In this document: positions 2,475 to 52,605 of the stretch, piece by piece | Numbering within the stretch: the stretch's first letter is position 1 | How the letters are laid out: each line of letters begins with the position of its first letter | DNA from: Alphaproteobacteria bacterium | GTDB taxonomy: Bacteria; Pseudomonadota; Alphaproteobacteria; RF32; CAG-239 | Reading direction: 5' to 3' | NCBI GenBank assembly: GCA_031550205.1 | Contig: JAVBOV010000028.1 | Coordinates: 1 to 57,005, forward strand | Length of the DNA stretch: 57,005 bases | Notes under the pieces: generated by a model | The model's input: the letters and a program-made list of their open reading frames with translations, nothing else | Database searches by the model: none | What the model was told of the DNA's origin: nothing | Program-made: the position numbers and the translations under genes

Positions 2475-2592
2475 AATTTTTATTTTTAAATGAATAATAT
2501 TTGATACATAATTATAATCGTTTTTAACCCCCTCAGAATACCACACACACTCAAGATTTTCAACGTTTATAATGTTAAACTTTTGTTACAAG
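2475..2592 (-). promoter_or_regulatory. Conserved ~120-bp upstream leader block with a (CA)n tract and a distal TTGTAACAAAAGTTTAAC motif
   Basis: Aligns almost base for base with 22005-22127, which lies upstream of an unrelated gene. The distal motif recurs at 50078-50095 and 16500-16517, and is truncated at window positions 1-10. Confidence 0.45.
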
Positions 2593-18766: not shown

Positions 18767-20806
18767 CTAAATTCTACCGGTTTTCAATAGGTTATGATAT
18801 TTAAACACCGAACCGTTCGGCACATCCCAGCTAAAATCTTTTTTCATCGCTTTTTGCATCATCTCCTTAATCTTTGATGGATGATTATAAAAAACATCCA
18901 AAGCTTTGCTTAAAGATTCCACATAGGCGTTCACATTGTTCTTCAAGCGCTTGGCAGTCATATTGTTGCCGTAAACCCGCCTGTCCTGCACAAAGAAAAC
19001 CTTGGTTCTGAAACCGTCCACACAATCATCAATCGTATCCACCAAACCGCCGGTTGACATGGCAATCGGCAGCGTTCCCTTGGCCATTGCCTCCATCTGG
19101 GTCAAGCCGCAGGGCTCAAAGCGGCACGGCATCATATAAAAATCCGAAGCCAATTGAATTGCATATGCAAACTCATCGCGATACCCGCGGAACACAAAGA
19201 TTCTCTTTCCGGCTTTCTTATCCATAGCTGAGACCTTGTCCTTAAGCTGCTTCAAAATCTCATAATAAGCCGCATCTCCGGCACCGCCCAAAATCATAAT
19301 CGGATATTCTTTCTTGGCGTCATGATGCTTGGTTAAGAAGCTCAAAATAGCCTGTGCCGCAATATCATATCCCTTTTGTTCGGCCAAACGTGAGGTTGCA
19401 CAAAATACGGGAATTTTATCGGCTTTTTTAATCGCATCGGAAATATCTTCAAACTTATAGGTTTCAACCAGAGGAATTGTCTTGTTTTTATATTCCTTAT
19501 CCGTCGCCAGCCTTGACAACAACTTAATAAACTCCACCTTATTGTGCAGCTTGGTGCTTAAGCTGTTCTCGTCAAACACCTTAAAATCGAACCCGTCAAA
19601 ATATTTGTTAATGCCTTCAATCTTGGCTTTGTTCGGCGAAATCAGCTTTTTGTCATAACCGTTCACAATGCCGAAAAAGTTTCGGTGGTCTTTGCGCATT
19701 TTCAAAATATCACGAAAATCGAAACCAAAACCAAGTTCTTTTGAAACCTCTTCCAAATAATTTTTGGAAACCGTCACCACCCTGTCGGCCAAATGAAAGT
19801 TTGAAGAAGCCTGATTATAGCAGTCGTGCACAATCAAAACATTGGTCGCTCTGGGGTTGGAGTTCTTAATAGCCTTGGCGTTTTTAAACACCGTCATCAC
19901 CATATCTTCATATAAGGAGTTTAAGATTTTTGAGGTGTTTTCATAGTCCCAGCCCTGATACCCCAGATGGTGCGCCAAATGAATAATCGGAATAGATTTA
20001 ACCTTAGCCGCCAGCTCTTCAGGCATCTGCCCGTGCTCGCTTAAGGCGGTGGTAAAATATTTGGTAAGCCCGGCCAGAGCTCCGGAGTGCCAGTCATTGG
20101 CAATCAGCACGTTGGGCTTTTGAATTTTCTCATCAATCTTATAGCAAAGCTCTTTTAAGAGCGTAAAGACGGCTTTGGAAAAGAACGCAAAACGCTCCAC
20201 CTCATTAATGCCGAATTCGTTATAAACATAGCACCCGTCCTGTGCCGAAGGGTTTTCCTTATGCGGATTAATCGAAAAAAAGCGGTCGCTTGATAAAAAC
20301 AAATAATCGGCAGTTCCAAAACGCCCCTTATAAACATCAACTTTATACTTGGTCAAAACGTGCTTATCATTAAAAAATGGCACCGTAATTGTCTTAGCCT
20401 TTTCAAGCTTCACCGAATTTCCTTCGGCGCCGGTATAAACATCATCCTTCAAATGGCATTTTTTCTTGCCCGTATCGCCCAAATAAAGCGGCGTCACCAC
20501 CAAAAGCTTTTCACCGTTTTTTTCAAAGTTTTTATTAAAAGCTTCCGGCAGCTCGGTGGCAATTACGCCAAGCCCGCCCCATTTCATAAACGTTGCGGTT
20601 TCAGCGCTGATCATCCAGGAATTAATCTTGTCAATAACCGGCCACTCGTCTTTGCTTAAACACTGTTTTCTTGAAAAATTTTGAATCTCCAATAGATTCT
20701 TGTTATTCACCACCGGGTAGCTTATTGTGAGCTTTTTCTTGTTAAAACCTTTCGGAAGAGGATTTCTGTTAAGAACTTCTTCCGTTGCGGCGGCTTTAGG
20801 TATCAT
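18767..20806 (-). CDS. Long glycogen/starch synthase-like glycosyltransferase (GT5)
   Basis: N-terminal KWGGLGVIATELP (a variant of K[TS]GGLxDV) and C-terminal RFEPCGLTQMEAMAKGTLPIAMSTGGLVDTI. About 680 aa against about 480 for typical GlgA. ATG at 20806; the track start at 20833 is TTG. Confidence 0.85.
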   Translation of the reverse strand: MIPKAAATEEVLNRNPLPKGFNKKKLTISYPVVNNKNLLEIQNFSRKQCLSKDEWPVIDKINSWMISAETATFMKWGGLGVIATELPEAFNKNFEKNGEKLLVVTPLYLGDTGKKKCHLKDDVYTGAEGNSVKLEKAKTITVPFFNDKHVLTKYKVDVYKGRFGTADYLFLSSDRFFSINPHKENPSAQDGCYVYNEFGINEVERFAFFSKAVFTLLKELCYKIDEKIQKPNVLIANDWHSGALAGLTKYFTTALSEHGQMPEELAAKVKSIPIIHLAHHLGYQGWDYENTSKILNSLYEDMVMTVFKNAKAIKNSNPRATNVLIVHDCYNQASSNFHLADRVVTVSKNYLEEVSKELGFGFDFRDILKMRKDHRNFFGIVNGYDKKLISPNKAKIEGINKYFDGFDFKVFDENSLSTKLHNKVEFIKLLSRLATDKEYKNKTIPLVETYKFEDISDAIKKADKIPVFCATSRLAEQKGYDIAAQAILSFLTKHHDAKKEYPIMILGGAGDAAYYEILKQLKDKVSAMDKKAGKRIFVFRGYRDEFAYAIQLASDFYMMPCRFEPCGLTQMEAMAKGTLPIAMSTGGLVDTIDDCVDGFRTKVFFVQDRRVYGNNMTAKRLKNNVNAYVESLSKALDVFYNHPSKIKEMMQKAMKKDFSWDVPNGSVFKYHNLLKTGRI

Positions 20807-20943
20807 TTTTCTTCTTTCAAATTTATTTTGCAACTTAAGGATGTATCATATGCCAGAAAATATAATAATTCCTTAAATCTTGACTTATGTTCTTTCAATT
20901 CCTACAATATAGCCTAAGTAATTTCATATTTAAAGAGGAAAAG

Positions 20944-22237: not shown

Positions 22238-23443
22238 TTACTTAATAGTTTGCTTTATTCTCTTCTTTATAATTGCCCTTATACTGCCTGCTGTTTTTTG
22301 CATTTTTTTCTCATCAAACTTCTCAAACAGCCATTCTGCCGCATCTTCAACGTTCTGCAGTGTAAAAGCCAAAGTCTCTTCTAAAACCTCTTCTCCCACC
22401 CCAATCTCTTCTGCCATTTTCATAAAATGCCGACGACTTATCTTATCCGGGTTATATTCTCCGCCGATACTCATCGCCATGCTTTTACTCAGCTTCGGAT
22501 AAACTTGCGTGGAAACCAAATCATAAAATGGAGCCAGTTTTATCCCTTGTTTAGTATATAAAAAAGAAAAATTTTTGCCATGCGCATCTGAGTTTCCAAT
22601 CACAAAATTAAAAACCGTCAAACGCAAAAACTGCATTTTATCTGCAAGCGGAGAAACCGAATGATTTTCAATAAGCTTAAAACACTGCTTAATCGAAGGT
22701 CCCCCGTCTTTTTGATATTTTTTACCCATCAACCCCAATGCTTGGCAAAAATCTTCCTGATGAACCCTCTTTATAGCCCGCTTCCCTCCCCTGTCATATC
22801 TCTTGGTGCAATAATATAGCCCCTTTTTTGTCTCCTCAATATCGCACTCTGCAACTTCAAACCCCAATATCTTTGCCAAAATCATGCAAAAATATTCATT
22901 ATATACCAAGCCCTCAAAGGCCAGGTTATCCGGCTTAATAATATGCGTAGAAACGTTCTCGCTGTTGGGAATATAAAATTCTCCACCTTTGCAAATCAAA
23001 GCAATTTTATCCTGTGCTCCGGCAAGAGAAAGCCTGACATCTTCTCCGACCAGCATTGGAACTTTCACCCTGTTTTCAAACAGTTCATCCAAATCTTTTT
23101 TCAAAAGCAAAACCGGCTTGGCGGTCTCTTTTTTCTTCAAGCCTGAAAGGTGCAGCGAAACCGCTCCCGCACACTCTTCGCCAAATTCTCTTAAAAAAGC
23201 AAACGGATTATTCGCTGAAAACCCCTTAAGTTTAGCAATAATTTTTCTCAAATCTCCTTCCGGCAAAAGGTTTTCAAAAAAACCTCTGCTCCACCTGTCG
23301 TCAAAAGCTTCTTTTTGCAAAGGAAGTGCCAAAGAAATCGGCCTTGAAGCAGTCTCAAGATACTTAAAGCTCAGTCTTGAATTTTTCTCGGTCAAAACTC
23401 CAACTTTTTCATCAAAAAAGTATACATCCAAAGAAGGCATCAT
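22238..23443 (-). CDS. hipA: HipA-family serine/threonine kinase toxin
   Basis: LSLAGAQDKIAL and VIGNSDAHGKNFSF catalytic-loop motifs. The ATG at 23443 overlaps the hipB TGA (ATGA coupling). The track start at 23458 is TTG. Confidence 0.9.
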   Translation of the reverse strand: MMPSLDVYFFDEKVGVLTEKNSRLSFKYLETASRPISLALPLQKEAFDDRWSRGFFENLLPEGDLRKIIAKLKGFSANNPFAFLREFGEECAGAVSLHLSGLKKKETAKPVLLLKKDLDELFENRVKVPMLVGEDVRLSLAGAQDKIALICKGGEFYIPNSENVSTHIIKPDNLAFEGLVYNEYFCMILAKILGFEVAECDIEETKKGLYYCTKRYDRGGKRAIKRVHQEDFCQALGLMGKKYQKDGGPSIKQCFKLIENHSVSPLADKMQFLRLTVFNFVIGNSDAHGKNFSFLYTKQGIKLAPFYDLVSTQVYPKLSKSMAMSIGGEYNPDKISRRHFMKMAEEIGVGEEVLEETLAFTLQNVEDAAEWLFEKFDEKKMQKTAGSIRAIIKKRIKQTIK

Positions 23444-23649
23444 CTGTTCTCCAGACAAACAACCAAACCAAGCTGCTCAATCACATATAAAACCTTACCA
23501 ACTTGGCAGGTCTCTTTTCCAGCCTCTAAATCAACAATAAAACGAACCCCAACCCTGCAAAAACCGGCCAGTTGCCCCTGCGTCAAACCTTGTTTTTTGC
23601 GCTCTTCTCTAACTCTCTCACCAATTTCTTTAAACTTTTTAACAATCAT
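23440..23649 (-). CDS. hipB: XRE-family HTH antitoxin (HipB-like)
   Basis: IGERVREERKKQGLTQGQLAG helix-turn-helix. Lies directly upstream of hipA and is translationally coupled to it. ATG at 23649. Confidence 0.8.
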   Translation of the reverse strand: MIVKKFKEIGERVREERKKQGLTQGQLAGFCRVGVRFIVDLEAGKETCQVGKVLYVIEQLGLVVCLENR

Positions 23650-29326: not shown

Positions 29327-29938
29327 ATGGCAAAAATTATTCTACCCATGGGCCCTTCATCATGCGGTAAAGGCTACCTAACCAACGAAATTATCAAACC
29401 TTATTGCGAAAAGCATGGCAAAAGATTAGTAGTCATAAGCACCGGTGAGTTATTACGCGAAGAAGTCGCCAACCAAACAAATCTTGGGAAATTAGCAAAA
29501 ACCTTTATAGATAAGGGCATACTGGTCCCGGATAGGCTGATTTGGAGTATGTTTGAAAAAAAGCTCTTAAGCTTAGGGCCAAATATTCCCAATCTTTTTA
29601 TCATAATCGATGGCCTTCCGCGAAATTTATTCCAGCTTGGTGCTCTTTGGCATTTGATACCTCAGCATTTTGAAGATGAAAAAGTCGAAGTAATTGCTAT
29701 TAATGCCGAAGAGCGAATACTTATTGAGCGCATGCTAAAACGAGCCGAAAAAGAAAAACGCAGCGATGATTATAAGGAATCCTTCTATCAAAAGATGGAT
29801 GTCTACCGAAAAGATGTCTTCCCTACTGTACGGAAAGCAGCAGATATTATCGTTTGGAAAAATTTCCACATCATTGACGCAAATCAAGATCTAAAAGAAA
29901 TCGATCATTCGTCAATGCTAAATCAAATTTTCAACTAA
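29327..29938 (+). CDS. Divergent adenylate-kinase-family nucleoside monophosphate kinase
   Basis: P-loop GPSSCGKG, LVPDRLI and IIDGLPRN blocks parallel the adenylate kinase blocks GPPGxGKGT, LVPDE and LxDGFPR. Standalone gene. Confidence 0.7.
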   Translation: MAKIILPMGPSSCGKGYLTNEIIKPYCEKHGKRLVVISTGELLREEVANQTNLGKLAKTFIDKGILVPDRLIWSMFEKKLLSLGPNIPNLFIIIDGLPRNLFQLGALWHLIPQHFEDEKVEVIAINAEERILIERMLKRAEKEKRSDDYKESFYQKMDVYRKDVFPTVRKAADIIVWKNFHIIDANQDLKEIDHSSMLNQIFN

Positions 29939-29991: not shown

Positions 29992-30095
29992 GAGTTTGAT
30001 TTGTGAGCGTGCTACGCAGTGATTTTGCGGGCGTGAGTGTACGCTTTTGTACATGAGCCCGCAAAATTACAAGTATGACGCCATAAATCAAACTC
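29992..30095. repeat. Family-B ~100-bp palindromic element, copy 1 (abuts the hydA stop codon)
   Basis: gagtttgattt...gattttgcgggc-gtgagtgtacgcttttgtacatga-gcccgcaaaatt...aaatcaaactc. Homologous to 40890-40992. Confidence 0.8.
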
Positions 30096-31885
30096 TACTT
30101 CGGCTCAACAGCTTCGTCTTTCTTATACGCCTCACGCTTAACATAATGCGTATGCAAAAGCTCGTGTGCCTTGTGCGAAGACGGTTTTTCCAAAAATTCA
30201 TCATAAAGCTTCTTAATCGATTCGTTATGGTGAGAGAAATGGTTCTTCATTCCCTTATCCTCATCCAGCAAACCTTTGGCGCGCTTTAAGCGAATATCGT
30301 TGGTAATGCCGCGAGGTTTCTGCTGATCAGGAAGCAAGGCTCTCGGCTGTCCGCCGCCGGAAATACATCCGCCGCGGCAAGCCATAACCTCAACAAAGTG
30401 ATACGGAGTTTCAAGGCCTGCCTTCTTGGCCTCGCGAACCTTTTGCAAAACCTTTTCCACATTTCCGGTTCCATGCGCCACCGCAATACGAACCTTGTTT
30501 CCGGCAACGTCAATTTCAGCTTCCTTAACGCCTTCCAAGCCTTCAATCTGCTTAAAATTAACCGTTTCCAGCTCTTTGCCGGTAATGTAAAAATAGGCCG
30601 TGCGCAAAGCCGCCGTCATAACCCCGCCGGTTGTGCCGAAGATTGTGCCAGCGCCGGAATATTCACCCAGCGGATTATCTGCCTGCTCATCTTTTAAAGC
30701 CCTGAAATTAATGCCCGACTGCTTAATCATTCTTGAAAGCTCTCTGGTGGTCAAAGACACGTCCACATCTTGGAACCCTGAAGATCTCATGTCTTCGCTG
30801 CGCCTGATTTCCCACTTTTTGGCTGTGCAGGGCATAATTGAAATCACCCTGACCTTAGCTGGGTCAAGCCCCATTTTCTGGGCATAATAAGTCTTGGCCA
30901 TAGAGCCCACCATCGATTGCGGAGACTTACAGCTTGAGAAATGAGAAATCATGTCATGATGATACTTTTCCATCAAATCCACCCAAGACGGGCAGCAAGA
31001 TGTAATCAAAGGCAGGCTGTCCGGCTGCTTGGTAAACCTGTTCACAAACTCGGTTGCTTCTTCAATAATGGTCAAATCTGCACCAAAGTTGGTGTCAAAT
31101 ACCTTGGAAAAGCCCAAGCGGCGCAAAGCGGCATAAAGCTTGCCGGTCAAATTTGTGCCGATTTCATAGCCGAAATCTTCGCCGATTGCCACTCTAACCG
31201 CCGGAGCAATCTGCACAATAGTGTGCAAATCTTTGTCATTAAGCATATCCCAAACCTTTTGGGTCTCGTCATACTCAACAATTGCACCGGTCGGACAGTG
31301 TGCCGAACATTGACCGCACTTAATGCACGGACTCTCGTTTAGTGGAATTCCGCCGGCAGCCGTAATTTTGGTTGCCAATCCGCGGTGCAAAAAGCCCAAA
31401 GCCCAAACGTTTTGCTGATGCTGACAAACTTCCACGCAGCGTCCGCAGGTAATGCATTTTGAAGCATCCAAAACAATCGATTTTGTAGAATCATCAATCG
31501 GGTGCATCTTAGTTAGGTTGGGAAGTCTGGCCTCTCTAATCCCAAAGTCCTGCGTAATATCTTGCAACTCGCAGGTTCCTGAGCGAATGCAGGTCAGACA
31601 GGAGTTCGGATGGTTGCTCAAAATCAGCTCCAAAACCGTTCTTCTCACGCTCACCAGTTCCGGGTCAGAGGTAATAATGTTCATACCTTCTTCCGCCGGC
31701 GTGCAGCAAGAGCGCAAAATTCTGCCGTTAACCTTAACAATGCACAATCCGCAGCCTGCTGACGGGTCAACATCCGGGTGCTTGCACAAAGTAGGAATAT
31801 CAATCTGAATGTTTCTGGCTGCTTCTAAAATTGTCGTACCCTGAGGAACTTCAACATCAAAATTATCAATCTTTAATTTCACCAT
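30095..31885 (-). CDS. hydA: [FeFe]-hydrogenase catalytic subunit (M3-type, with C-terminal small-subunit-like tail)
   Basis: H-cluster motifs TSCCPSW, MPCTAKKWE and EVMACRGGCISGGGQP. N-terminal 2Fe-2S domain, HPNSCLTCIRSGTC, and two CxxCxxCxxxC ferredoxin motifs. Confidence 0.95.
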   Translation of the reverse strand: MVKLKIDNFDVEVPQGTTILEAARNIQIDIPTLCKHPDVDPSAGCGLCIVKVNGRILRSCCTPAEEGMNIITSDPELVSVRRTVLELILSNHPNSCLTCIRSGTCELQDITQDFGIREARLPNLTKMHPIDDSTKSIVLDASKCITCGRCVEVCQHQQNVWALGFLHRGLATKITAAGGIPLNESPCIKCGQCSAHCPTGAIVEYDETQKVWDMLNDKDLHTIVQIAPAVRVAIGEDFGYEIGTNLTGKLYAALRRLGFSKVFDTNFGADLTIIEEATEFVNRFTKQPDSLPLITSCCPSWVDLMEKYHHDMISHFSSCKSPQSMVGSMAKTYYAQKMGLDPAKVRVISIMPCTAKKWEIRRSEDMRSSGFQDVDVSLTTRELSRMIKQSGINFRALKDEQADNPLGEYSGAGTIFGTTGGVMTAALRTAYFYITGKELETVNFKQIEGLEGVKEAEIDVAGNKVRIAVAHGTGNVEKVLQKVREAKKAGLETPYHFVEVMACRGGCISGGGQPRALLPDQQKPRGITNDIRLKRAKGLLDEDKGMKNHFSHHNESIKKLYDEFLEKPSSHKAHELLHTHYVKREAYKKDEAVEPK

Positions 31886-31896
31886 TTTCGTTTCCC

Positions 31897-33570
31897 CTAT
31901 TTCTTCTTCTCTTTTTTAATCTTATCCATATATTCTTTTTCAAAGAAATGCAGTGTTGAAAGCACCGGGTTGGGCGCTGTCTGACCCAATCCGCACAAAG
32001 ATGCCTTTTGCATTGCATGTGCAACGCCTTTCATTTCTTCAATATCTTCCATTGTAGCGCGGCCGGCAATAATCTTTTCCAGCAAAAGCACCAGCTGCTT
32101 GCCGCCCACACGGCACGGAGCGCACTTGCCGCAAGATTCATCAACTGTAAAGTCCAGATAAAACTTGGCAATATCCACCATGTTGGAAGTATCATCCATC
32201 ACAATCATGCCGCCCGAGCCCATAATCGAACCCACTTTTTTAAGTTCTTCATAACAAACCGGCAAATCCATCTGTGAAACCGGAATCACGCCGCCGGAAG
32301 GCCCGCCGGTCTGCACCGCTTTTAGTTTTTTGCCGTGCGGCACACCGCCGCCGATTTCATTAACAATTTCATTTAAAGTCGTACCCATCGGCACCTCAAT
32401 CAGGCCGATATGCTCAACCTGGCCTGAAAGCGCAAACACTTTGGTTCCCTTGGAAGTGGCCGTGCCAAAAGAACTGAACCAGTCTGCTCCTTTCAAGATA
32501 ATGGTCGGAATATTGGCCAAGGTCTCAACGTTGTTAACGCAAGAGGGCTTGCCCCACAAACCATGGTCTGTCGGATACGGCGGACGTGGACGCGGAGTAC
32601 CGCGGTTGCCTTCAATCGAGCGAATAAGCGCGGTTTCTTCGCCGCATACAAACGCGCCGGCACCAAGCCTCACTTCAATATTAAAAGAAAAATCCGTTCC
32701 CAGAATATTTTTGCCCAAAAGCTTATATTTGCGGGCATCTTTAATCGCCTTTTCCAAGCGCTCCACCGCCAAAGGATATTCGGCGCGCACATAAAACCAG
32801 CCTTCGGTCGCCCCAATGGCATAAGCGCCAATCATCATGCCCTCAATAACCTCGTGCGGGTTTCCTTCCAAAATTGAGCGGTCCATATACGCACCCGGGT
32901 CGCCTTCGTCACCGTTGCAGATAATAAACTTTTCATCCACGGTTGGAACTTTGGCCGCAAATTCCCACTTCATGCCGGTCGAAAAACCGCCGCCGCCGCG
33001 TCCGCGCAGACCGGATTTCTTAATTTCCGCCACCACATCGGCCGGCTTCATGGTTTTCAAAACCTTCTCCAAGCCCAAATATCCGCCGTGAGAAATATAT
33101 TCGGCAATATCTTCCGGGTCCAAGTGTCCGGCGTCTTTCAAAACCACTTTTTCCTGCTTGGTGAAAAAAGGCAAATCCAAAGAAAGAACGCACTCTTCCA
33201 AAACCTTCGGCAGGGTCATCTGCTTTCCGGACTCCAGCTTTAAAGCCGGCACCACATGCTCATCAATAATTGTTTTCATTGTTGGCGCATCAACCAGTTT
33301 ATACAGCACGTCTTTCTGACCCTTAACCTCAACCCTGATCAACGGCCCCTGAGCGCAAAGCCCCATGCATCCGGTTGGCACAATCCTGACCTTTTCTTCA
33401 ATTCCGTGCACTTTAAAAGCTTCTTTCATGGCCGCAATCAAATCATCGCTGCCAGAAGATTTGCAGCCGGTGGAATGGCAGCAATAAATGTTGCATAAAA
33501 ACTTGTCTAAAAGCTGTTTTTTTTCTTCTGCAACAAAGTGAATGTCGTATTTATTATCAACTTCTGCCAT
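31897..33570 (-). CDS. hydB: NuoF-like flavoprotein subunit of the trimeric hydrogenase
   Basis: N-terminal thioredoxin-like 2Fe-2S cysteines, FMN/NADH site GLRGRGGGGFSTGMKW, and 4Fe-4S ESCGKCAPCRVG...CGLGQ. The ATG at 33570 is preceded by aaggag; the track start at 33639 is TTG. Confidence 0.93.
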   Translation of the reverse strand: MAEVDNKYDIHFVAEEKKQLLDKFLCNIYCCHSTGCKSSGSDDLIAAMKEAFKVHGIEEKVRIVPTGCMGLCAQGPLIRVEVKGQKDVLYKLVDAPTMKTIIDEHVVPALKLESGKQMTLPKVLEECVLSLDLPFFTKQEKVVLKDAGHLDPEDIAEYISHGGYLGLEKVLKTMKPADVVAEIKKSGLRGRGGGGFSTGMKWEFAAKVPTVDEKFIICNGDEGDPGAYMDRSILEGNPHEVIEGMMIGAYAIGATEGWFYVRAEYPLAVERLEKAIKDARKYKLLGKNILGTDFSFNIEVRLGAGAFVCGEETALIRSIEGNRGTPRPRPPYPTDHGLWGKPSCVNNVETLANIPTIILKGADWFSSFGTATSKGTKVFALSGQVEHIGLIEVPMGTTLNEIVNEIGGGVPHGKKLKAVQTGGPSGGVIPVSQMDLPVCYEELKKVGSIMGSGGMIVMDDTSNMVDIAKFYLDFTVDESCGKCAPCRVGGKQLVLLLEKIIAGRATMEDIEEMKGVAHAMQKASLCGLGQTAPNPVLSTLHFFEKEYMDKIKKEKKK

Positions 33571-33574
33571 TTTC

Positions 33575-34057
33575 TTACTCCTTACCGCCGGCTTGGTTAT
33601 TCTGCTTCCACTCGTCAACAATCGGCTTAACGCCCTCAACGGTCATGCGGCCATAGGTTTTGCCGTTAACCACCACCACCGGAGCCAAACCGCAGCAGCC
33701 GACGCAGCGCACGCATTGCAGGTGAAACTCCTTATCCGGAGTGCTCTCGCCTTCCTTAATGTTAAGCAGTTTTTTAAACTCTTCCAAAACCTTGTCGTTG
33801 CCCTTAAGGTAGCAGGCCGTTCCGGTGCAAACCGAAACCACGGCCTTACCCGGAGCCTCAAGTTTGAAGAAGTTATAAAACGTAAGCACTTCATAAATTC
33901 TGGCCATGGGCACACCCATTCCGTAAGCCAGTTCCAAAGCGCTGTCCCAAGGAACATATCCGTTGGTTTCCTGAATTTCATGAAGAGCCATAATCAAAGA
34001 GCCTCTTTTGGCCTTCCACTTAATTGCGGCCTTTTGGGCTGCAGAAATTTCCGCCAT
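33575..34057 (-). CDS. hydC: NuoE-like 2Fe-2S subunit of the trimeric hydrogenase
   Basis: CTGTAC...CVRCVGCCGLAPVV cysteine pattern of NuoE/HydC. ATG at 34057 after ggtgg; the track start at 34066 is GTG. Confidence 0.92.
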   Translation of the reverse strand: MAEISAAQKAAIKWKAKRGSLIMALHEIQETNGYVPWDSALELAYGMGVPMARIYEVLTFYNFFKLEAPGKAVVSVCTGTACYLKGNDKVLEEFKKLLNIKEGESTPDKEFHLQCVRCVGCCGLAPVVVVNGKTYGRMTVEGVKPIVDEWKQNNQAGGKE

Positions 34058-39496: not shown

Positions 39497-40633
39497 ATGG
39501 AAAAAACATTATTTAACGGCAACATCTTAAAAGTAAGACTAGCCAAATTTAACAAAAATCGTCGGGTTTTAACTATTGAAACGCCGGATGGCGAAGAGCT
39601 ATTCCGAAAAAAACTTTCTTTAAACTTCATAATTGCAACACATTTCAATTTTGTTTGCTTTTACGATTATAAGAACAATTTTTTCTCTTCAAATACCGCC
39701 TGGCTAACCGCCAACGGCCAACTCTTAAGCGACGACTACCAGCCTTTTGCAGAAGAAGACTTCGTTCCCGCCGGCATCATCGCCACCAACAAAATCAACG
39801 GTCTAACCGGTTTAATCGATTTTCTTGGCAATGAAATTATCCCCTGCGGATATAAAGACATCATTGAGTTCAAAAAAGCCACCCACCCCGGATGTCCGAA
39901 AGGTTGGTTTGCGCTAAGAAAAAGCAGCGATCTTCTTATGGGCTTAGCCAACAAAGAAGGAAATATTGTCATTCCGGCAATATATGATGATATCAGCTTC
40001 ACCCCGTTTCACATAATCGCCGAAGATTCTCAAAAAAATTATTTTCGCTTTTACGATTTTAAAGGAACAATAAAAGGTGAGCTCGAAAAAGTGGACTTTG
40101 ATAAGAAAAACAATGTTTACAAGGTCATGACTAAAGTCGGCTTTGACATTTTGTCCTCTGATTTAAAAAGCATTCTGCCAAATGAAGTGCAAAAAAACAT
40201 ATTAAAAGATACATTTGTTTTTACTGCTCGTCATACAAATCTTTTTAACGGTGGCAAGGTTATCCTCTATCCCGACAAAGAAGGCCGCATCAGGATTTAT
40301 GGTTCAAAAAACAACCATAAAAAAGGCAACGACGTTTCTGAATTTGACGACATGTGGTTTTTCAAACAGCAAATCTGCGAACAAGGCTTTGCCCTGTTAA
40401 ACCAAGACTGGGTTATCTTCGATAAACAAGGCAACGCTCTTGCTTCAATGCTGATAGATGATTTAAAGCTGCTTCCGGAGGGAATCGTGCTCTATAAGCG
40501 TTCTTTTTCCGGCAAAACCAAACAAGGTTTTATGGATTGGAAAGGAAAACTGCTCTATCCCATTACTTTTGATGAAATTGTATTCAAAAAAGGAGTAGCC
40601 CTCGGAAAAAACAATTCTATTTTCGACAAATGA
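39497..40633 (+). CDS. WG/KWG-repeat-like protein (paralogue of 53694-54764)
   Basis: Repeated units of the form G(L/F)xxxxGxxVIPxxYDxIxxF (GLIDFLGNEIIPCGYKDIIEF, GLANKEGNIVIPAIYDDISF). Clear paralogy to the second copy, including the leader. Confidence 0.65.
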   Translation: MEKTLFNGNILKVRLAKFNKNRRVLTIETPDGEELFRKKLSLNFIIATHFNFVCFYDYKNNFFSSNTAWLTANGQLLSDDYQPFAEEDFVPAGIIATNKINGLTGLIDFLGNEIIPCGYKDIIEFKKATHPGCPKGWFALRKSSDLLMGLANKEGNIVIPAIYDDISFTPFHIIAEDSQKNYFRFYDFKGTIKGELEKVDFDKKNNVYKVMTKVGFDILSSDLKSILPNEVQKNILKDTFVFTARHTNLFNGGKVILYPDKEGRIRIYGSKNNHKKGNDVSEFDDMWFFKQQICEQGFALLNQDWVIFDKQGNALASMLIDDLKLLPEGIVLYKRSFSGKTKQGFMDWKGKLLYPITFDEIVFKKGVALGKNNSIFDK

Positions 40634-42863: not shown

Positions 42864-43109
42864 TTAAATATCCTCGTCCAAAAACCCGCAAGCATCCATA
42901 ATTTTTGCAAAATCCAGCAGCCGAATTCTTTTTTCTCCAAGCTCCATATCATTCAAATCCACCTTCTCAACTCCTATTTTATCCGCCATTTCCACCACCG
43001 ATAACCCCTTAGCAGCTCTCATCTTAATAATCAAACGTCTTACAACCTTTTGATTACTCTCATAACTAAGTTCAAAGTCTTCTTCAGTATAGTGGCAACT
43101 TTCAGTCAT
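42864..43109 (-). CDS. XRE-family HTH protein
   Basis: AAKGLSVVEMADKIGVEKVDLNDMELGEKR helix-turn-helix. 81 aa. Confidence 0.7.
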   Translation of the reverse strand: MTESCHYTEEDFELSYESNQKVVRRLIIKMRAAKGLSVVEMADKIGVEKVDLNDMELGEKRIRLLDFAKIMDACGFLDEDI

Positions 43110-43197: not shown

Positions 43198-43437
43198 ATG
43201 ACCAAATCTATGTATTCGGAAAGACACATCAAAATAAGAGCAATGCTCCTGGAAGAACGCCAAAACAGCGGGTTAAGCCAAGAAGCTTTGGCAGAAAAAC
43301 TGGGCGTAAATCAGACTTATGTTTCCAAATATGAAATCGGAGAAAGAAGGCTCGATATAGAAGAGTTTCTAGACATCGCCGAAGCCCTAAACTTCGACCC
43401 CGCCAACTTCATCAAAAAACTCCACAAAACCAACTAA
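43198..43437 (+). CDS. XRE-family HTH protein
   Basis: RQNSGLSQEALAEKLGVNQTYVSKYEIGERRL is the canonical HTH_XRE pattern. 79 aa. Divergent from 42864-43109. Confidence 0.75.
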   Translation: MTKSMYSERHIKIRAMLLEERQNSGLSQEALAEKLGVNQTYVSKYEIGERRLDIEEFLDIAEALNFDPANFIKKLHKTN

Positions 43438-43440
43438 AAA

Positions 43441-43733
43441 AACCAACTATCCTTATACTCTTTCTTTCCTGCCTTAGGAAAAGTATTTAGATTTTGTTAG
43501 CGTAGTCTTGCGTCCTTCGGCTTGAGCGTGAGTCCTGCCGACTTAGAAAGTAAGACAGCTAAAGAACAATAACTCACTAAGGCAGGACATTAGCGAGAGA
43601 GCAAAACGGGCATTACAAAATCTTAGAAAGCGGAACTCAGGCTGCCTTTTTTGCCATACTTTTTGGGCAAGCAAAAAGTATGAAAACTACGTGCAGGTAA
43701 TAAACTCTAGGAAAAAAATACGAATGAAATTGC
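43441..43733 (+). repeat. Family-A structured intergenic element, copy 3 (most diverged)
   Basis: aaccaactatccttat...cctgccttagg...gtcctgcc / ggcaggac...cggaactcaggctg, then hairpin catacttttt-gggcaagc-aaaaagtatg (43655-43682), then an A-rich tail ending gaaattgc. Confidence 0.75.
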
Positions 43734-43756: not shown

Positions 43757-45160
43757 CTACATTGAGCCAATCAAAGAAACAGAAGAAATCGTATCCCCCA
43801 TCCCCACCAAAGTCTTCGGCTTTTCAATCAATATTGTCGGCACGGCAATCACATCAAACCCCTGATATTCAAAAAGCCCCGTTTCCAAAAGACTCTTGTC
43901 TTTCACCAGCTTTGCCAAATCTTCCAGCTCTTTAAGCCCGACATCTGAAACTTCTTTGCCCTTGGCCCACATCAGATTTTTATATTTATCAATGTCTCCA
44001 AGTCCGGCCTTGCTGGCTGAAACCGTGGCCGCCAGCATCATGCCTTTGCGGCTGTCTTTGGGAGAAATGGTAAAATCCTTGTCCTGCACCGTAATATAAA
44101 GCCCAAACATGTGCAGTTGAACTCGCGGCACCTTAATCTTTTCTTTCAAAGCCAAAATAGCTTGCAGCATATTGCCTGCCGTGGTTTTATCCTGACAAAG
44201 CTTTGCCAGCTTTTTCTCGCTGATAATTTCCAAAAAATCAATGGTTTCTCGCTCATTGCAGCCAATCGAAGCCGCCAATGGCGCCACTTTTTCAAAAATC
44301 GCCTTTCTAATCTTCAAATCCTGAGTCGAGGCAAGTTCCACGTGCAGCATTGCCTCGCTTTTTGCCCACTCTTTAATCATCGGCAAAGATTCCTTAATCA
44401 GCTTTTCCCCGCCGGCGCTTGCCGTCAAAGCATGATACCCTGAAACCACAATGCAGTCCGTTTTGGCTTTGCTTACCTTCTGCACAAAAGCCTCATCGCG
44501 CACTAAATTAAGATTTAAGGGGTCATAAGTGGCAATAAACCGATTCGCCTTCGGGCACACAAACCTCTGTCCCTCAATCTCCCAAACATCGCCCTTGTTA
44601 AACTCAATAATCCAATGAATCAGCGGCACGTCTGCCTTGCGGTTAATCTTATACGCCGGCTTTTCTTTGCCCTTGGCATCAAAAGAAACCAAATTTTTCA
44701 GCTTAACAAATTGCTCGGCCTGCATTTTGGGCAAAGAGTTGCAGTGCGCATATACTTTTTTCAAACCCAAAACCGCAAGGGCATTCGCCACAATTCCGCC
44801 CTGTCCGCCAATCTGCAAACGGTCATATCCCAGATTTTCAACCATCCAGTCATAAACCGCAATATCTTCTGAAATCCACTCTTCGGCAATACCCTGACTA
44901 AAACTCTTAAAAACTCCCCTAAGCACATCTTTGCCGGACTTTAACTTAAGCTCTTTAATGCTCTGCAAGTCTTTCAGGCACATTTCCTCCTGCTTGAGCA
45001 GGCGCAGAAACTTAACCGGCTTAATCTTCAGCACGGCGTCAATATTGGCATTAAAAGCGGCTGCAGCCGTTTTCTTGCCTTTAAGTTTTTTTAATGCTTT
45101 TGGAACAACTTTATAATTTTCAAGCCATACTTTTTTCAAATTTTCATCAGTCTTCATCAT
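43757..45160 (-). CDS. ADP-dependent sugar kinase (ADP-glucokinase/phosphofructokinase family)
   Basis: QIGGQGGIVANALAVLG, ANRFIATYDP, LHVELAST and C-terminal VGMGDTISSVSL match the blocks I recall for archaeal and eukaryotic ADP-dependent kinases. Overlaps the hemY-like stop by 14 nt. Confidence 0.85.
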   Translation of the reverse strand: MMKTDENLKKVWLENYKVVPKALKKLKGKKTAAAAFNANIDAVLKIKPVKFLRLLKQEEMCLKDLQSIKELKLKSGKDVLRGVFKSFSQGIAEEWISEDIAVYDWMVENLGYDRLQIGGQGGIVANALAVLGLKKVYAHCNSLPKMQAEQFVKLKNLVSFDAKGKEKPAYKINRKADVPLIHWIIEFNKGDVWEIEGQRFVCPKANRFIATYDPLNLNLVRDEAFVQKVSKAKTDCIVVSGYHALTASAGGEKLIKESLPMIKEWAKSEAMLHVELASTQDLKIRKAIFEKVAPLAASIGCNERETIDFLEIISEKKLAKLCQDKTTAGNMLQAILALKEKIKVPRVQLHMFGLYITVQDKDFTISPKDSRKGMMLAATVSASKAGLGDIDKYKNLMWAKGKEVSDVGLKELEDLAKLVKDKSLLETGLFEYQGFDVIAVPTILIEKPKTLVGMGDTISSVSLIGSM

Positions 45161-46229
45161 CTTCTTCTCTTAAATTTTTTTCTTCCAAAAGGCTTTCTTC
45201 CACATCCAAATAAATCTGCCACTCTATTTTGCCAAAAGCCCCGCAATTAGAACATGTTGCCTGCCATTTGTCATATGCGCTGCCGCAAACTCCGCAGACC
45301 CAGGCGGAATTTTCCGCGCAGTTCTCAATTTTTCCCTGCCAGCTCTTTGCCGCTTTTTTATCATTGTTATGATTGGTCTCATACTTGGCAATCATTTTGC
45401 ACATTTCTTTAGTACACGGATTATTAATCAAAAACTGCTCAAACTGCGCCTTGGCCTTGGCCCAAAGCCCGGCTTTAGAATAAAGCTCCGCCAAAATCAT
45501 GTTGTTAAGCGCCGGAAGATTGCGATTATAACTGGTAAAATGCTCCATTTTTTCAACTTTTTCCAACGGTCCCAGACCGTGAAAAATTTTCAAATATTCA
45601 TCCGCCAAATCTCTAACCGGATTTTTCTCCCAGGCACCAAGCAGCATCTTGGCGGCTTTTTTGCGGTCTTTTTCATATTTTGCCATCAAAACCACCGCCG
45701 GAACCAAAGAGCCATCCGTATTAACCGCATGCTGACAAAGCCGGTTAAAGTTTTCTTCATCTCCTTTGAGCTTAACCTCTTTAGCAATTTCAAACAAAAT
45801 TATCGCCTTATATTTTTTATATTTTTCAATCGAAATCAATTCTTTGCCGAAAGCCCCGTCCAAAACCTTAAGCGCGCCATACCAGTTTTTTTGCTTGGTT
45901 CTTGCTTCCAGAGCGCTTTCCACTGCCCAGCGTAAATCCTGAGTTTGTTTTTCCCCTTTAAATTTTCCGCTTAAAATGTTCAAATCCGTATCCCGCAGAC
46001 TAACCTCATGCAGGGTGTTGGGATTATGTTTAAAAAGCCTTTCCAAAAGGTTTCCCAAAAATTCTGCCAAAATCACATATACCAAAACCAAAATCAACGC
46101 TTCCAGCAAAGAAAATTTTTCAAGACTGCCGTTCCAAGAAACATTAATATAGCTCTTCCTGTCCACGCCCCAAATCGCCACGGCAATAATCAGTCCGGCC
46201 AATATAAAGCTGGGAACTTTCCTGCTCAT
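45147..46229 (-). CDS. HemY-like TPR membrane protein with a C-terminal zinc ribbon
   Basis: Two N-terminal TM segments, TPR-like helical repeats, and C-terminal CGVCGSAYDKWQATCSNCG. Sits directly after the mic60-like gene, as in alphaproteobacteria. Confidence 0.75.
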   Translation of the reverse strand: MSRKVPSFILAGLIIAVAIWGVDRKSYINVSWNGSLEKFSLLEALILVLVYVILAEFLGNLLERLFKHNPNTLHEVSLRDTDLNILSGKFKGEKQTQDLRWAVESALEARTKQKNWYGALKVLDGAFGKELISIEKYKKYKAIILFEIAKEVKLKGDEENFNRLCQHAVNTDGSLVPAVVLMAKYEKDRKKAAKMLLGAWEKNPVRDLADEYLKIFHGLGPLEKVEKMEHFTSYNRNLPALNNMILAELYSKAGLWAKAKAQFEQFLINNPCTKEMCKMIAKYETNHNNDKKAAKSWQGKIENCAENSAWVCGVCGSAYDKWQATCSNCGAFGKIEWQIYLDVEESLLEEKNLREEDDED

Positions 46230-46230
46230 T

Positions 46231-47112
46231 TCAGTTCTCCTTTAACTGGTTAATTTTCATCAACGCCAAAGAGCCGGCAGATATCTTGGAAAAAGCGCTC
46301 TCAAACTCAACCCTTTGTCTGGCTTTTGCCTTCCAGCCCTCAAAAGAAGGGTTATCCGAGTTTTCCATCTTTTTCAAAGCTCCGGAAAAATTGCCTTTCA
46401 AAACATCTTCCCTGGCCAAATCCAAAGAGTTATCTTCATTGTCTGTCGCCAAGTTGGTTTTTCTAATCTGAACAATTTCCTTAAACTTATCCATCAGCCT
46501 TTGCTTCCAGCTGAGCTTTTCGGTTTCTTCCTTTTTGCCGGTCTTTTTATATATGCTTTCAAAGCCGTTTATCAAATCTCTCTCAGTGCTGATGCCTGTT
46601 TCGGAAGCGGCAGCAATAACTTTAACCGGCTCGGCAATCTCTTGGTTTTTTGCCGTCATTTGGCGCAAAATTTCCGCCTCAAAAGCAAACTCCTCACCTC
46701 TGTCTGCTCTGTCCTTAACCAACATCAGAGCGTTCAAAATCAAAGCTCCGCTGTCGCTGACCTTGGCAACCGTATCAACCTTGCTTTCCATCTTGTCTAA
46801 ACGTGTTACCAAACCCAAAACCGTGGCAATATCCGCCTTAGAATCAATAATGCTGATATTTTGCTTTTCCATGCGCTCCAGCTTGGCATCCAGACCTGAT
46901 AAATCGACCTTTTCATGCGTATTGTTCTGTAAAAACAACACTTCTTTTCTTAAAGACTCAACTTCAGCCTGAAGAGAATTTATCTCTTTTTGATTATTAA
47001 ATTTAGCCGCCGTTTCTTCTATAATTTTCGGGTTCTGATAAATAAAATATCCGCCGCCGCCGATTGCCGCCAAAAAGATAATAAGATAAAAAAAGCTTTT
47101 GATTTTTTGCAT
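46231..47112 (-). CDS. Alphaproteobacterial Mic60-like (HemX-like) protein: TM anchor, coiled coil, mitofilin-like C-terminus
   Basis: N-terminal TM segment FFYLIIFLAAIGGGGYFIY, a long coiled coil, and a C-terminal block LAREDVLKGNFSGALKKMENSD..FEGWKAKARQRVEFESAFSKIS. Lies between hemY-like and divergent tsaD. Confidence 0.6.
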   Translation of the reverse strand: MQKIKSFFYLIIFLAAIGGGGYFIYQNPKIIEETAAKFNNQKEINSLQAEVESLRKEVLFLQNNTHEKVDLSGLDAKLERMEKQNISIIDSKADIATVLGLVTRLDKMESKVDTVAKVSDSGALILNALMLVKDRADRGEEFAFEAEILRQMTAKNQEIAEPVKVIAAASETGISTERDLINGFESIYKKTGKKEETEKLSWKQRLMDKFKEIVQIRKTNLATDNEDNSLDLAREDVLKGNFSGALKKMENSDNPSFEGWKAKARQRVEFESAFSKISAGSLALMKINQLKEN

Positions 47113-47196
47113 TTTGATTCCTCTAGAATGAATCTTGATTATAAACTTTATGTAGTTTATTATTCTTTAACAAAAATATCAACTTGGAAAATGTTC

Positions 47197-50878: not shown

Positions 50879-51514
50879 ATGTCTCTTAACATCATTGTTC
50901 TGCTTCTTGTGGTCGCCGTGGTTTTTTACCGCTTATATTCGCTTTTGGGCACCCGTCCTGACGGCTTTGAAAAGCACGAAATTGACGATAAAGAGGCCGC
51001 CAAATTGTTCGACCTGATTGTTAAAGAGACCTCAAAAACCATCAACGGCGAAGCCGAAGAAGTTGTTGAGCCCACCGGCATCGATGCCGTTTTTGCCAAA
51101 ATCCCCGGTTTTAATAAGGAAAAATTCATCAATGGCGCCAAAAAATCTTTTGAAATGATCTTAAACGCCTTTGCCAAAGGCGATATTGATGTCTTAAAAA
51201 TGCTGCTTGGCAAAAACCTGCTCAAAAAGTTTCAAGACATCATCAAAAAACGCCAGGAAGAAGGCGTTAGCGCCGAAGCCGAACTCATCGGCTTTACCAA
51301 AGCCGAAATTAAAGACGCACAGATTTCCGCCTCTAAAATCGCCAAAATCACCGTCGATTTCATCTCCGAACAGGTAAACCTGCTTAAAAACTCCAAAGGC
51401 GATGTGGTTGAAGGCGACGCCAACTTCATCCAGAGCATTTCCGATACTTGGACCTTTGAAAAAGACATTACATCTCCCAACCCTAACTGGCTTTTGGTAT
51501 CCACAAAAAAATGA
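50879..51514 (+). CDS. Tim44-like domain protein
   Basis: N-terminal TM segment followed by a Tim44-like C-terminal domain (FINGAKKSFEMILNAFAKGDIDVLKMLL...WTFEKD...NWLLVST). Conserved position next to secB and mltA. Confidence 0.8.
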   Translation: MSLNIIVLLLVVAVVFYRLYSLLGTRPDGFEKHEIDDKEAAKLFDLIVKETSKTINGEAEEVVEPTGIDAVFAKIPGFNKEKFINGAKKSFEMILNAFAKGDIDVLKMLLGKNLLKKFQDIIKKRQEEGVSAEAELIGFTKAEIKDAQISASKIAKITVDFISEQVNLLKNSKGDVVEGDANFIQSISDTWTFEKDITSPNPNWLLVSTKK

Positions 51515-52605
51515 ACCGCAAATTAACCTTAATTATCCTGCTTTTATATTTTTTCATAATGTCTGCCGCTTTGGTTTGGCTTAAAGAAGAAAAACCTTCA
51601 AAACCAGCTGTTGCAAAGCTTGCTTTTGTTCCTCATTCTTTCAAAGACCTCAAAAACTGGAAAAAAGACCACCTTGCCGAAGCTTTCCACGCGTATCAAT
51701 TGTCCTGTCAAAAAACCAAATCCTGCCAAATAAATAATGCCAAAGACTTTCGCAAGTTCTTAGAACAAAACTTTGTTCCCCATCTGGTAGTTTATAACGG
51801 CTCCTCCGAGGGTAAGTTCACCTCATATTATGAATCCGCCTTAAGCGCTTCTTATCACCGCTCGGAAAAATACCAATATCCGGTTTATGGTAAACCCAAA
51901 GATTTGGTTGAGTTTAACCTTAAAGACTTTGATAAAAACGCCGATTCCAAACGTTTTGTCGGCCGTGTTAAAGACGGCAGATTAATTCCCTATTACACCC
52001 GCGCTGAAATAGATAACGCCCCGCTTGACGCCCCCGTCATCCTCTGGGCGGATGATGCAATTGACATTTATGTTATGCAAATTCAAGGCTCTGCCGTGGC
52101 TGAACTTGATAACGGCTCCAAAGTCCGCATTGGTTATGCCGACAACAACGGCCACCCCTTCCGCGGCATCGGCAGCATTTTGCTTGAACAGGGCTTAATC
52201 GGCAAAGGCCAAGTCTCCATGGGCAAAATCAAAATCTGGCTCAAAGAAAACGGCGAACTTGCCAGCCAGAATATGCTCAAAAATGACCGTTTTGTCTTCC
52301 ACCGCCTGATAGACGCTGAAGGTCCCATCGGCGCCCAGGGCGTGCCTTTAACTCCCGGCCGTTCTTTGGCCGTAGATAAAAAATATATCCCGCTTGGCTC
52401 ATTGCTGTGGCTTGAAACCACCGGTCCAGATAATGAAAAAATTGAAAAACTGGTGGTGGCGCAAGATATCGGCAGCGCCATAGAGGGGCCGATTCGCGGA
52501 GACTACTTCTGGGGCTCCGGCGGTGACGACATTTTGGAACTGGCCGGCCGCATGAACTCCAAGGGCCGCTATTTCATCCTGCTTCCTAAAAAGGAAAAAC
52601 CATGA
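51511..52605 (+). CDS. mltA: Membrane-bound lytic murein transglycosylase A
   Basis: MltA-specific and 3D-domain blocks (IQGSAVAELDNGSKVRIGYADNNGHPF, RSLAVDKKYIPLGSLLWLE, AQDIGSAIEGPIRGDYFWG). ATGA overlaps on both sides. Confidence 0.88.
   Translation: MNRKLTLIILLLYFFIMSAALVWLKEEKPSKPAVAKLAFVPHSFKDLKNWKKDHLAEAFHAYQLSCQKTKSCQINNAKDFRKFLEQNFVPHLVVYNGSSEGKFTSYYESALSASYHRSEKYQYPVYGKPKDLVEFNLKDFDKNADSKRFVGRVKDGRLIPYYTRAEIDNAPLDAPVILWADDAIDIYVMQIQGSAVAELDNGSKVRIGYADNNGHPFRGIGSILLEQGLIGKGQVSMGKIKIWLKENGELASQNMLKNDRFVFHRLIDAEGPIGAQGVPLTPGRSLAVDKKYIPLGSLLWLETTGPDNEKIEKLVVAQDIGSAIEGPIRGDYFWGSGGDDILELAGRMNSKGRYFILLPKKEKP

Follow-up and report, generated by a model that had tools for sequence, protein, structure and literature searches.

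A predicted ADP-dependent glucokinase behind the mic60-like genes of gut-associated alphaproteobacteria

What does an ADP-dependent sugar kinase phosphorylate in a bacterium, and why is its gene found directly behind a mic60-like gene? Reviews of glycolysis list ADP-dependent glucokinase (ADP-GK) as an archaeal (and eukaryotic) enzyme. The question is raised by a 57,005-nucleotide (nt) stretch of contig JAVBOV010000028.1 (assembly GCA_031550205.1, Alphaproteobacteria bacterium; the whole stretch is called the window here), in which a 467-residue kinase is encoded at the 3' end of a run of three genes, mic60-like, hemY-like and kinase. A sequence-only reading, made by a model without database searches, had singled out this locus. 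The account that we favor, with a probability of roughly three in four, is that the gene encodes an ADP-GK of a distinct subfamily, that it was acquired anciently and has been kept by vertical inheritance, that it depends for expression on the promoter of the mic60-orf52 (hemY-like) pair in front of it, and that the enzyme phosphorylates free glucose.

Family, fold and active site of the kinase

The protein carries the four sequence blocks from which the sequence-only reading had recognized the ADP-dependent glucokinase/phosphofructokinase family: GGQGG at residue 118, NRFIATYD at 206, HVELAS at 273 and GMGDTIS at 453. The Pfam profile of that family, PF04587 (ADP_PFK_GK), matches it over nearly its full length (240.3 bits against a cut-off of 27, E = 4e-71, model positions 4–429 of 430), and all 14 matches in a sequence search of the PDB are ADP-dependent glucokinases or phosphofructokinases. 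The AlphaFold2 (AF2) model (predicted local distance difference test, pLDDT, 85.7; predicted template-modeling score, pTM, 0.85) agrees with this assignment. When it was compared with the PDB by Foldseek, ranks 1–22 were all ADP-dependent kinases (TM-score 0.59–0.85, E down to 6e-37), and the first ATP-dependent enzyme of the ribokinase fold appeared at E = 2.8e-6 with a TM-score of 0.38, no such enzyme exceeding 0.42. The two-domain fold, composed of a large Rossmann-like domain and a small lid, is nearer to the ADP-dependent than to the ATP-dependent enzymes of the ribokinase family. The kinase is a member of the family of ADP-dependent sugar kinases (PF04587, ribokinase superfamily); neither profile nor structure assigned it to the ordinary ATP-dependent PfkB sugar kinases, the alternative that the sequence-only reading itself had named.

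Roles in catalysis and nucleotide binding have been described for the GXGD, HXE and N/DXXE motifs and for the arginine contacting the β-phosphate (PMC7948494). The corresponding residues of the kinase are D456, H273/E275 (HXE), N302-E-R-E305 (NXXE) and R207, the β-phosphate Arg, together with H350, the ribose-contacting His. All of them are invariant in the 120 close homologues that were aligned. ADP is the phosphoryl donor that would be expected from the family membership and from the conserved nucleotide-site residues H350 and R207.

Sugar specificity was assessed by mapping residues through pairwise PDB alignments and a 130-sequence alignment, with the numbering of the ancestral phosphofructokinase (PFK) AncMsPFK as reference. 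In that numbering, conservation of K179, N181 and R212 is restricted to PFK-specific and bifunctional enzymes and that of E90 to glucokinase (GK)-specific and bifunctional enzymes, and GK-specific enzymes have His in place of N181 (PMC7948494). The gene and the codons concerned are as follows (F6P, fructose-6-phosphate).

43757..45160, minus strand: ADP-dependent sugar kinase gene, 467 residues, ATG start; predicted glucose-specific ADP-GK; 3'-most gene of the putative transcription unit
43793..43804, minus strand: GXGD motif G453-M-G-D456, with the catalytic base Asp
44879..44881, minus strand: codon of E94, equivalent to E90 of AncMsPFK and E72 of ancMT; glucose-binding Glu
44615..44623, minus strand: codons of L180-I181-H182; Leu for the F6P-phosphate-binding Lys179 and His for Asn181, the GK-specific state
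44522..44542, minus strand: codons of R207..D213 (RFIATYD); R207 universal, D213 for the Arg212 of PFK and bifunctional enzymes

At position 90 the kinase has E94, the GK or bifunctional state; at 179 it has L180 and at 212 D213, neither of them the PFK state; and at 181 it has H182, the GK-specific state. E94, H182 and D213 are present in all of the 120 best homologues, and position 180 is Leu in 108 and Met in 12 of them, never Lys. The surrounding motifs, pLIHWIIEF and NRFIATYD, resemble those of Pyrococcus GKs (cIHYIYEF and NRFIGxAD) and are unlike those of the bifunctional ancMT (iKINRIFEF and NRFIVASR). The residues that contact glucose in archaeal GKs are all kept: D41, E94, G119, Q120, H182, R207, H243 (Q or H in GKs) and D456. 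We infer from these positions that glucose is the substrate, and the kinase is predicted to be a glucose-specific ADP-GK (EC 2.7.1.147) rather than a PFK or a bifunctional enzyme; since it lacks the equivalents of K179, N181 and R212, use of F6P is not expected. Of the earlier assignment to "glucokinase/phosphofructokinase", the family therefore stands, but the phosphofructokinase half does not agree with an active site of the glucokinase type.

Among characterized enzymes, the ADP-GKs of Thermococcales (P. furiosus 1UA4, P. horikoshii 1L2L and T. litoralis 1GC5; EC 2.7.1.147) belong to the same Pfam family and share the two-domain fold (TM-score 0.82–0.85), the catalytic and Mg-ADP motifs and the glucose signature (E; x-I-H-[YW]-I; NRFIxxxD). 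They differ from the kinase in several respects: sequence identity is only 24–29%, the host of the kinase is a mesophilic bacterium, the kinase scores under the NCBIfam cut-offs, the residue before the signature His is Cys in the Thermococcales enzymes and Leu or Met in the subfamily of the window, and the gene sits in a mic60 operon rather than in a sugar-metabolism context. The match to mouse ADPGK is much weaker (42 bits; TM-score ~0.6).

Distribution and inheritance of the subfamily

At E ≤ 1e-10, more than 1000 homologues of the kinase are found. Identity to it is 57–63% in the best 120, and the named entries among these carry the label "MAG: Alphaproteobacteria bacterium" (MAG, metagenome-assembled genome). 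In a scan of one genome per GTDB species, relatives were encoded in 461 species genomes, of which the best 80 are all alphaproteobacterial MAGs from gut or rumen (humans, mice, chickens, deer, rabbits, ruminants), with names such as "Proteobacteria bacterium CAG:495", "Candidatus Scatocola" and "uncultured Azospirillum sp. UMGS". Ca. Scatocola is placed in Alphaproteobacteria, order Rhodospirillales, by the NCBI taxonomy; the gut clade as a whole is presumably the one that GTDB calls order RF32. The source of the window is an invertebrate gut metagenome, and TsaD, Nth and kinase distances make it a relatively divergent member of the clade.

Kinase distances correlate with those of the housekeeping proteins TsaD (Mantel r = 0.67) and Nth (r = 0.65) nearly as TsaD and Nth distances correlate with each other (r = 0.72; all P = 0.001), and the base composition of the gene (GC 0.444; GC at third codon positions, GC3, 0.513) is typical of the window. 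Because the kinase tracks the housekeeping genes and is compositionally native, vertical inheritance from an old acquisition is favored over recent transfer, and the data indicate that the gene is clade-wide and vertically inherited in these uncultured gut alphaproteobacteria. The earlier statement that the family is only sporadic in bacteria consequently fails for this lineage.

The whole family is small, comprising only 608 clusters in an exhaustive search of 1.84 billion representatives. Within it, the kinase belongs to a tight subfamily (clusters P0121–P0133, 37–58% identity), beyond which identity falls sharply to ~30%. In a bootstrapped neighbor-joining tree of 130 sequences, support is 100% for the gut clade and 99% for a subfamily of 17 representatives, all of which share the GK signature. 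The subfamily is distinct, well supported and mostly bacterial; the 90% cluster of one of its representatives, P0128, contains a protein named from a Myxococcota MAG. Nodes deeper than the subfamily are poorly supported (bootstrap ≤ 24), and the subfamily is nearly equidistant from all outgroups, so that the search for a donor lineage in this tree named none. The sequence-only reading had asked for the donor lineage; what emerges is an old, vertically inherited gene rather than a recent transfer from a donor that can be identified. The closest named sequences beyond the bacterial subfamily are proteins P0139, P0143 and P0145 from Asgard MAGs (Heimdallarchaeota, Promethearchaeota). They have the same GK signature and come from likewise mesophilic and anaerobic organisms, but are only ~31–33% identical to the kinase, and given the poor resolution of the tree they may be described as its nearest named sequences rather than as donors. 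In the literature, searches for ADP-GK in gut alphaproteobacteria or for a reconstruction of the clade's metabolism yielded nothing specific.

The subfamily thus appears as a coherent, vertically inherited set of bacterial ADP-GK candidates in hundreds of gut-associated alphaproteobacterial species, and its active site yields a testable prediction: glucose yes, fructose-6-phosphate no.

Genomic position and transcription of the kinase gene

The elements upstream of the kinase coding region are the following.

47113..47190: spacer between the divergent mic60-like and tsaD genes, 78 nt; likely operon promoter
46231..47112, minus strand: mic60-like gene, 293 residues; one N-terminal transmembrane segment, coiled coil, conserved C-terminal helical domain
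45147..46229, minus strand: hemY-like gene for an Orf52-type membrane protein, 360 residues; two N-terminal transmembrane-like segments, tetratricopeptide (TPR) repeats, C-terminal LapB-type zinc ribbon
45147..45160, minus strand: overlap of the hemY-like end with the kinase start, 14 nt; too small for a promoter or terminator

The possible relationship of the first gene to mic60 was examined through profiles. When the mic60-like protein and 40 orthologues were scanned directly against Pfam, only coiled-coil noise and no Mitofilin domain came up. A profile of the 40 orthologues matched a Mitofilin-domain protein in a 5.8-billion-sequence database at E = 7e-8, with an hhalign probability of 95.9% over the PF09731 region of the matched protein; a profile search of the PDB reached MIC60 (7pv1) at E = 0.95 only. 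The AF2 model (pLDDT 72, long flexible helices) found nothing meaningful in the PDB by Foldseek (best E = 0.26). The transmembrane segment comprises residues 6–25, and coiled-coil matches are present. Elsewhere in the window, a Tim44-like gene (50879-51514, plus strand) and an MltA lytic transglycosylase gene (51511-52605, plus strand) overlap at the start of the latter; the Tim44-MltA-Smr block also occurs in three relatives (L001, L003 and L008) and is another mitochondria-related alphaproteobacterial marker near mic60.

The hemY-like protein matches TIGR00540 at E = 1.5e-8, under the cut-off of that model, and its orthologues contain HemY_N (13 of 26), TPR_19 (25 of 26) and Zn_ribbon_LapB (21 of 26) domains, so that "hemY-like" can stand as a label if it is taken to mean the alphaproteobacterial Orf52 protein. 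The copy in the window lacks ~112 residues, corresponding to the first TPR region, that at least 95% of the orthologues have. In two relatives (L023 and L025; 5677-5871), a 65-residue remnant lies in a 313-nt spacer. With the shortened copy in the window, these two remnants and the absence of the gene from 42 of 82 related loci, hemY-like/Orf52 seems to be decaying across the clade.

The canonical alphaproteobacterial cluster is hemC-hemD-mic60-orf52 (bioRxiv 10.1101/2022.06.14.496148). The locus resembles it in having a mic60-like gene for a protein with one transmembrane segment followed tightly, on the same strand, by a gene for an Orf52/"HemY_N" TPR protein with two. In contrast, hemC and hemD are absent here, a divergent tsaD gene lies upstream, a sugar kinase gene has been added 3' of the pair, the Orf52 of the window is shortened and half of the clade has lost the protein, and the probable Mic60 homology shows through the profile link only. 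In this lineage mic60 and orf52 have remained paired without the heme genes, and orf52 is on its way to being lost.

The three genes of the window are tightly packed, and the coordinates agree with the 1-nt spacer and the 14-nt overlap described in the sequence-only reading. The mic60-like stop codon, TGA at 46231-46233, is followed by a single base and by the hemY-like ATG at 46229, the Shine-Dalgarno sequence of which (AAGGAG) is located inside the 3' end of mic60-like. The ATGATG start of the kinase is embedded in the final codons of hemY-like (...GAAGATGATGAAGACTGA), the overlap amounting to 14 nt for initiation at M1 and to 11 nt for initiation at M2. A scan of the junctions between the three genes revealed no terminator-like site, and the 14-nt overlap rules out a separate, uncoupling terminator between hemY-like and the kinase in the window. 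A weak sigma-70-like match inside hemY-like (45391..45363, 9/12) was rejected as an internal kinase promoter, since the region holds 6 such matches against 7.6 in shuffled sequence; a dedicated promoter for the kinase is unlikely in the window. The tsaD/mic60-like spacer is the likely site of the operon promoter. On its minus strand it contains TTGATA-17-TAAACT (47182..47154) and a perfect TATAAT (47143-47138), followed by a GAGGAA Shine-Dalgarno sequence and the ATG, all of these being consensus matches only. Given the common strand, the 1-nt spacer and the 14-nt overlap, the mic60-like, hemY-like and kinase genes look co-transcribed as one unit in the window, as proposed earlier. The kinase is the terminal gene of this unit because the next gene (43198-43437) is convergent.

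That gene belongs to a divergent pair of small XRE-type helix-turn-helix (HTH) genes, cI/Cro-like, located between the kinase and xerD (42864-43109, minus strand, 81 residues; 43198-43437, plus strand, 79 residues). Relatives lack the pair at this position, and at 43490-43657 the metagenome assembly graph of run X1 breaks into fragments, pointing to an insertion that varies between strains. A search for repeats in the spacer 3' of the kinase found none, and scanning the locus against Rfam gave no RNA element, whether gathering thresholds or E ≤ 1 were applied.

Among 82 distinct loci of relatives, the gene order is the same throughout: nth and tsaD in one direction, then, divergently, mic60-like, an optional hemY-like gene (present in 40 of 82) and the kinase. 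The gap 5' of the kinase has a median of 14 nt, is at most 30 nt in 66 of the 82 loci, and usually contains a stop codon, a GGAG-type Shine-Dalgarno sequence and an ATG. Even one relative whose kinase is only ~43% identical (L092) keeps the arrangement, its upstream protein matching the mic60-like profile at 99.9%. The downstream neighbors of the kinase vary, with at least seven kinds observed (GATase, His_Phos_1, acylphosphatase, dnaE, a CNNM transporter, rplM and aroK), the neighbor in the window being an HTH gene. In the loci examined, rearrangements occur directly 3' of the kinase and never 5' of it, as would be expected if the kinase had no promoter of its own.

Transcript data from relatives are consistent with this arrangement. 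Their metatranscriptome contigs break exactly at the tsaD/mic60-like gap. In one relative from mouse gut (L057), a 1,740-nt contig from an rRNA-depleted metatranscriptome (X17) starts within mic60-like and spans the junction and the entire kinase, with zero coverage of the divergent spacer and of the convergent aroK gene. In a relative from chicken gut (L038), a 6.4-kb contig present in two runs extends over mic60-like, hemY-like and the kinase from a start just past the divergent spacer.

Several observations weigh against reading the kinase as uniformly co-transcribed with its upstream genes. A GC-rich hairpin with a T-run lies between the upstream gene and the kinase in about ten species (junctions L013, L029, L031, L034, L037, L038, L041, L043, L051 and L084), showing that co-transcription is not universal. 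In the same chicken-gut relative, which has such a hairpin, depth is halved just past it in a third run, and in a fourth run, of low depth, coverage ends at the hemY-like stop codon. The contigs were taken from Logan, and are unstranded and possibly DNA-derived. RNA of the window itself, from a metatranscriptome of the same study, yielded two short low-depth contigs on mic60-like (46296-46617) and zero on the kinase, too little to serve as evidence. The hairpins suggest attenuation rather than strict co-expression in the lineages that have them. The coupling of the kinase to a mic60/hemY-like operon, which the sequence-only reading had found unexpected, is thus real, holding in 82 of 82 loci, but in view of the hemY-like losses and the hairpins the link appears to be one of position and promoter sharing.

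Proposed role and alternative explanations

We propose that the gene was acquired long ago by the ancestor of a large anaerobic, gut-associated alphaproteobacterial clade and was inserted there directly 3' of the mic60-orf52 pair. In most species the kinase would lack its own promoter and be expressed by read-through, with the divergent tsaD/mic60 spacer supplying the promoter and the Shine-Dalgarno sequence of the kinase itself serving translation. Because of this presumed dependence, the kinase would never have been parted from its upstream gene, and its invariant place behind mic60 would illustrate cleanly how the need for the promoter of a host operon can hold a transferred gene in place. 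The enzyme would catalyze the reaction glucose + ADP → glucose-6-phosphate + AMP: D456 would act as the catalytic base, the HXE and NXXE motifs and Arg207 would hold Mg-ADP, and the β-phosphate of the latter would pass to O6 of glucose. AMP would be recycled by adenylate kinase, regenerating ADP; a gene for adenylate kinase is present in the window (29327-29938).

Free glucose from the gut, or from the breakdown of alpha-glucans or glycogen, would be the substrate. In other lineages, members of the subfamily are encoded 4 nt after a gene of glycoside hydrolase (GH) family 31 for an alpha-glucosidase, near PGM and PGI, and between genes for glycogen synthase and a GH57 protein; with a glycogen-synthase-like gene in the window, these neighbors make free glucose the likely substrate. 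The latter gene (18767-20833, minus strand) encodes an unusually long protein of 688 residues with Glyco_transf_5 and GT1 domains, which may be relevant to the origin of the glucokinase substrate. In the 57-kb window, neither glk nor pfkA was found. The "ADP-dependent glycolysis" of the sequence-only reading was an overstatement, as only the hexokinase step is covered and no ADP-dependent PFK is in evidence, but the anaerobic lifestyle inferred there fits an [FeFe]-hydrogenase in the window. The large subunit of this hydrogenase, with NuoG-like N-terminal domains, adjoins a NuoF-like flavoprotein (30095-31885 and 31897-33639, both minus strand); the pair has the look of a multimeric hydrogenase, possibly of the electron-bifurcating kind, which would fit a gut organism living strictly by fermentation. 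With an ADP-GK, such a fermenter could start glycolysis at times of ATP shortage. ADP-dependent sugar phosphorylation would be extended to common members of animal guts by a mesophilic bacterial ADP-GK, which would also be easy to express and assay; current understanding is not overturned by these findings.

The prediction of glucose as the substrate has to be weighed against several points. The donor and sugar specificities rest on residues defined in archaeal and ancestral enzymes, and a literature search found no assay of any member of this bacterial subfamily. The top match in both the PDB sequence search and Foldseek is AncMsPFK, the ancestral Methanosarcinales ADP-PFK (198 bits, compared with 150 for the P. 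furiosus GK; E = 6e-37), and the NCBIfam equivalog models for ADP-GK missed the kinase by a wide margin (NF010642, 190 bits against a cut-off of 387; NF010641, 179 against 554), the ADP-PFK model TIGR02045 scoring about the same (186 against 408). Read at face value, these scores could make the kinase an ADP-dependent PFK or a bifunctional PFK/GK, which, with an unseen partner, would allow a fully ADP-dependent upper glycolysis, much as the sequence-only reading had pictured it. We consider this highly improbable. AncMsPFK (6C8Z/6XIO) and the bifunctional enzymes (ancMT, M. jannaschii PFK/GK) do show the highest similarity to the kinase (~30% identity), with the same fold, nucleotide site and Glu (E90/E72), but they bind the F6P phosphate through K179, N181 and R212, where the kinase and its 120 best homologues have Leu or Met, His and Asp. 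Structural and mutational analysis of AncMsPFK showed that K179A raises the Km for F6P ~1000-fold, and N181A and R212A ~200-fold (PMC7948494). Every NCBIfam score, moreover, is far under its cut-off, which makes the kinase a member of a separate subfamily and, by that standard, no equivalog of the characterized archaeal glucokinases. That same distance, a divergence of ~67–72% from every characterized enzyme, leaves room for a pocket that misleads and for an ADP-dependent kinase of another unphosphorylated sugar (glucosamine, mannose, 1,5-anhydroglucitol or another gut or envelope hexose). ADP-GKs are promiscuous towards 1,5-anhydroglucitol (PMC12965863), and the conserved place beside envelope proteins would also fit this reading. 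We nevertheless regard another sugar as unlikely, since all glucose-contacting residues of archaeal GKs are conserved and the neighbors in other lineages are related to glucose and alpha-glucans.

That conserved place could also reflect a functional tie to Mic60/Orf52, for example in the biogenesis of the envelope or of membrane contact sites, with selection on the tie maintaining adjacency. Such a tie would account for an adjacency that is unbroken in all 82 loci and L092 although the downstream side has been rearranged many times. However, Orf52 is lost in 42 of the 82 loci and decaying in others, terminator-like hairpins occupy the junction in about ten species, with RNA coverage falling there, and members of the subfamily in non-alphaproteobacterial lineages have sugar-metabolism neighbors and no mic60; a promoter-less 3' gene, moreover, would be expected to stay linked for transcriptional reasons alone. 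We therefore find a functional tie very unlikely. The bolder version, in which the kinase is no passenger but has stayed beside alphaproteobacterial Mic60 throughout the history of the anaerobic gut clade because its activity (a local supply of glucose-6-phosphate, or sensing of ADP/AMP) is coupled to a Mic60-dependent envelope or membrane-contact-site function, has a correspondingly slim chance; if true, it would mean that an ancient archaeal-type, possibly Asgard-like enzyme had joined the operon of a protein common to alphaproteobacteria and mitochondria. The loss of orf52 in half of the clade, the attenuating hairpins and the other contexts outside alphaproteobacteria all argue against an obligatory tie, and the mic60/orf52 linkage is best explained as a historical capture of the kinase gene at the 3' end of a constitutively expressed housekeeping operon, probably incidental to the function of the enzyme.

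Three further features of the window lie outside these subjects. A 378-residue protein with WG-containing beta repeats (39497-40633, plus strand) is encoded by a gene inserted between ksgA and aroK; in relatives ksgA directly follows surA, and none of the loci inspected has a WG-repeat gene at that place. A protein of the metallo-beta-lactamase (MBL) fold (1785-2546, minus strand) gave a sub-threshold match to the anti-Pycsar protein Apyc1 (43 bits against a cut-off of 50) and is probably an ordinary MBL-fold hydrolase. A HipA-family toxin kinase with HipA_C and Couple_hipA domains (22238-23458, minus strand) is probably part of a toxin-antitoxin module.

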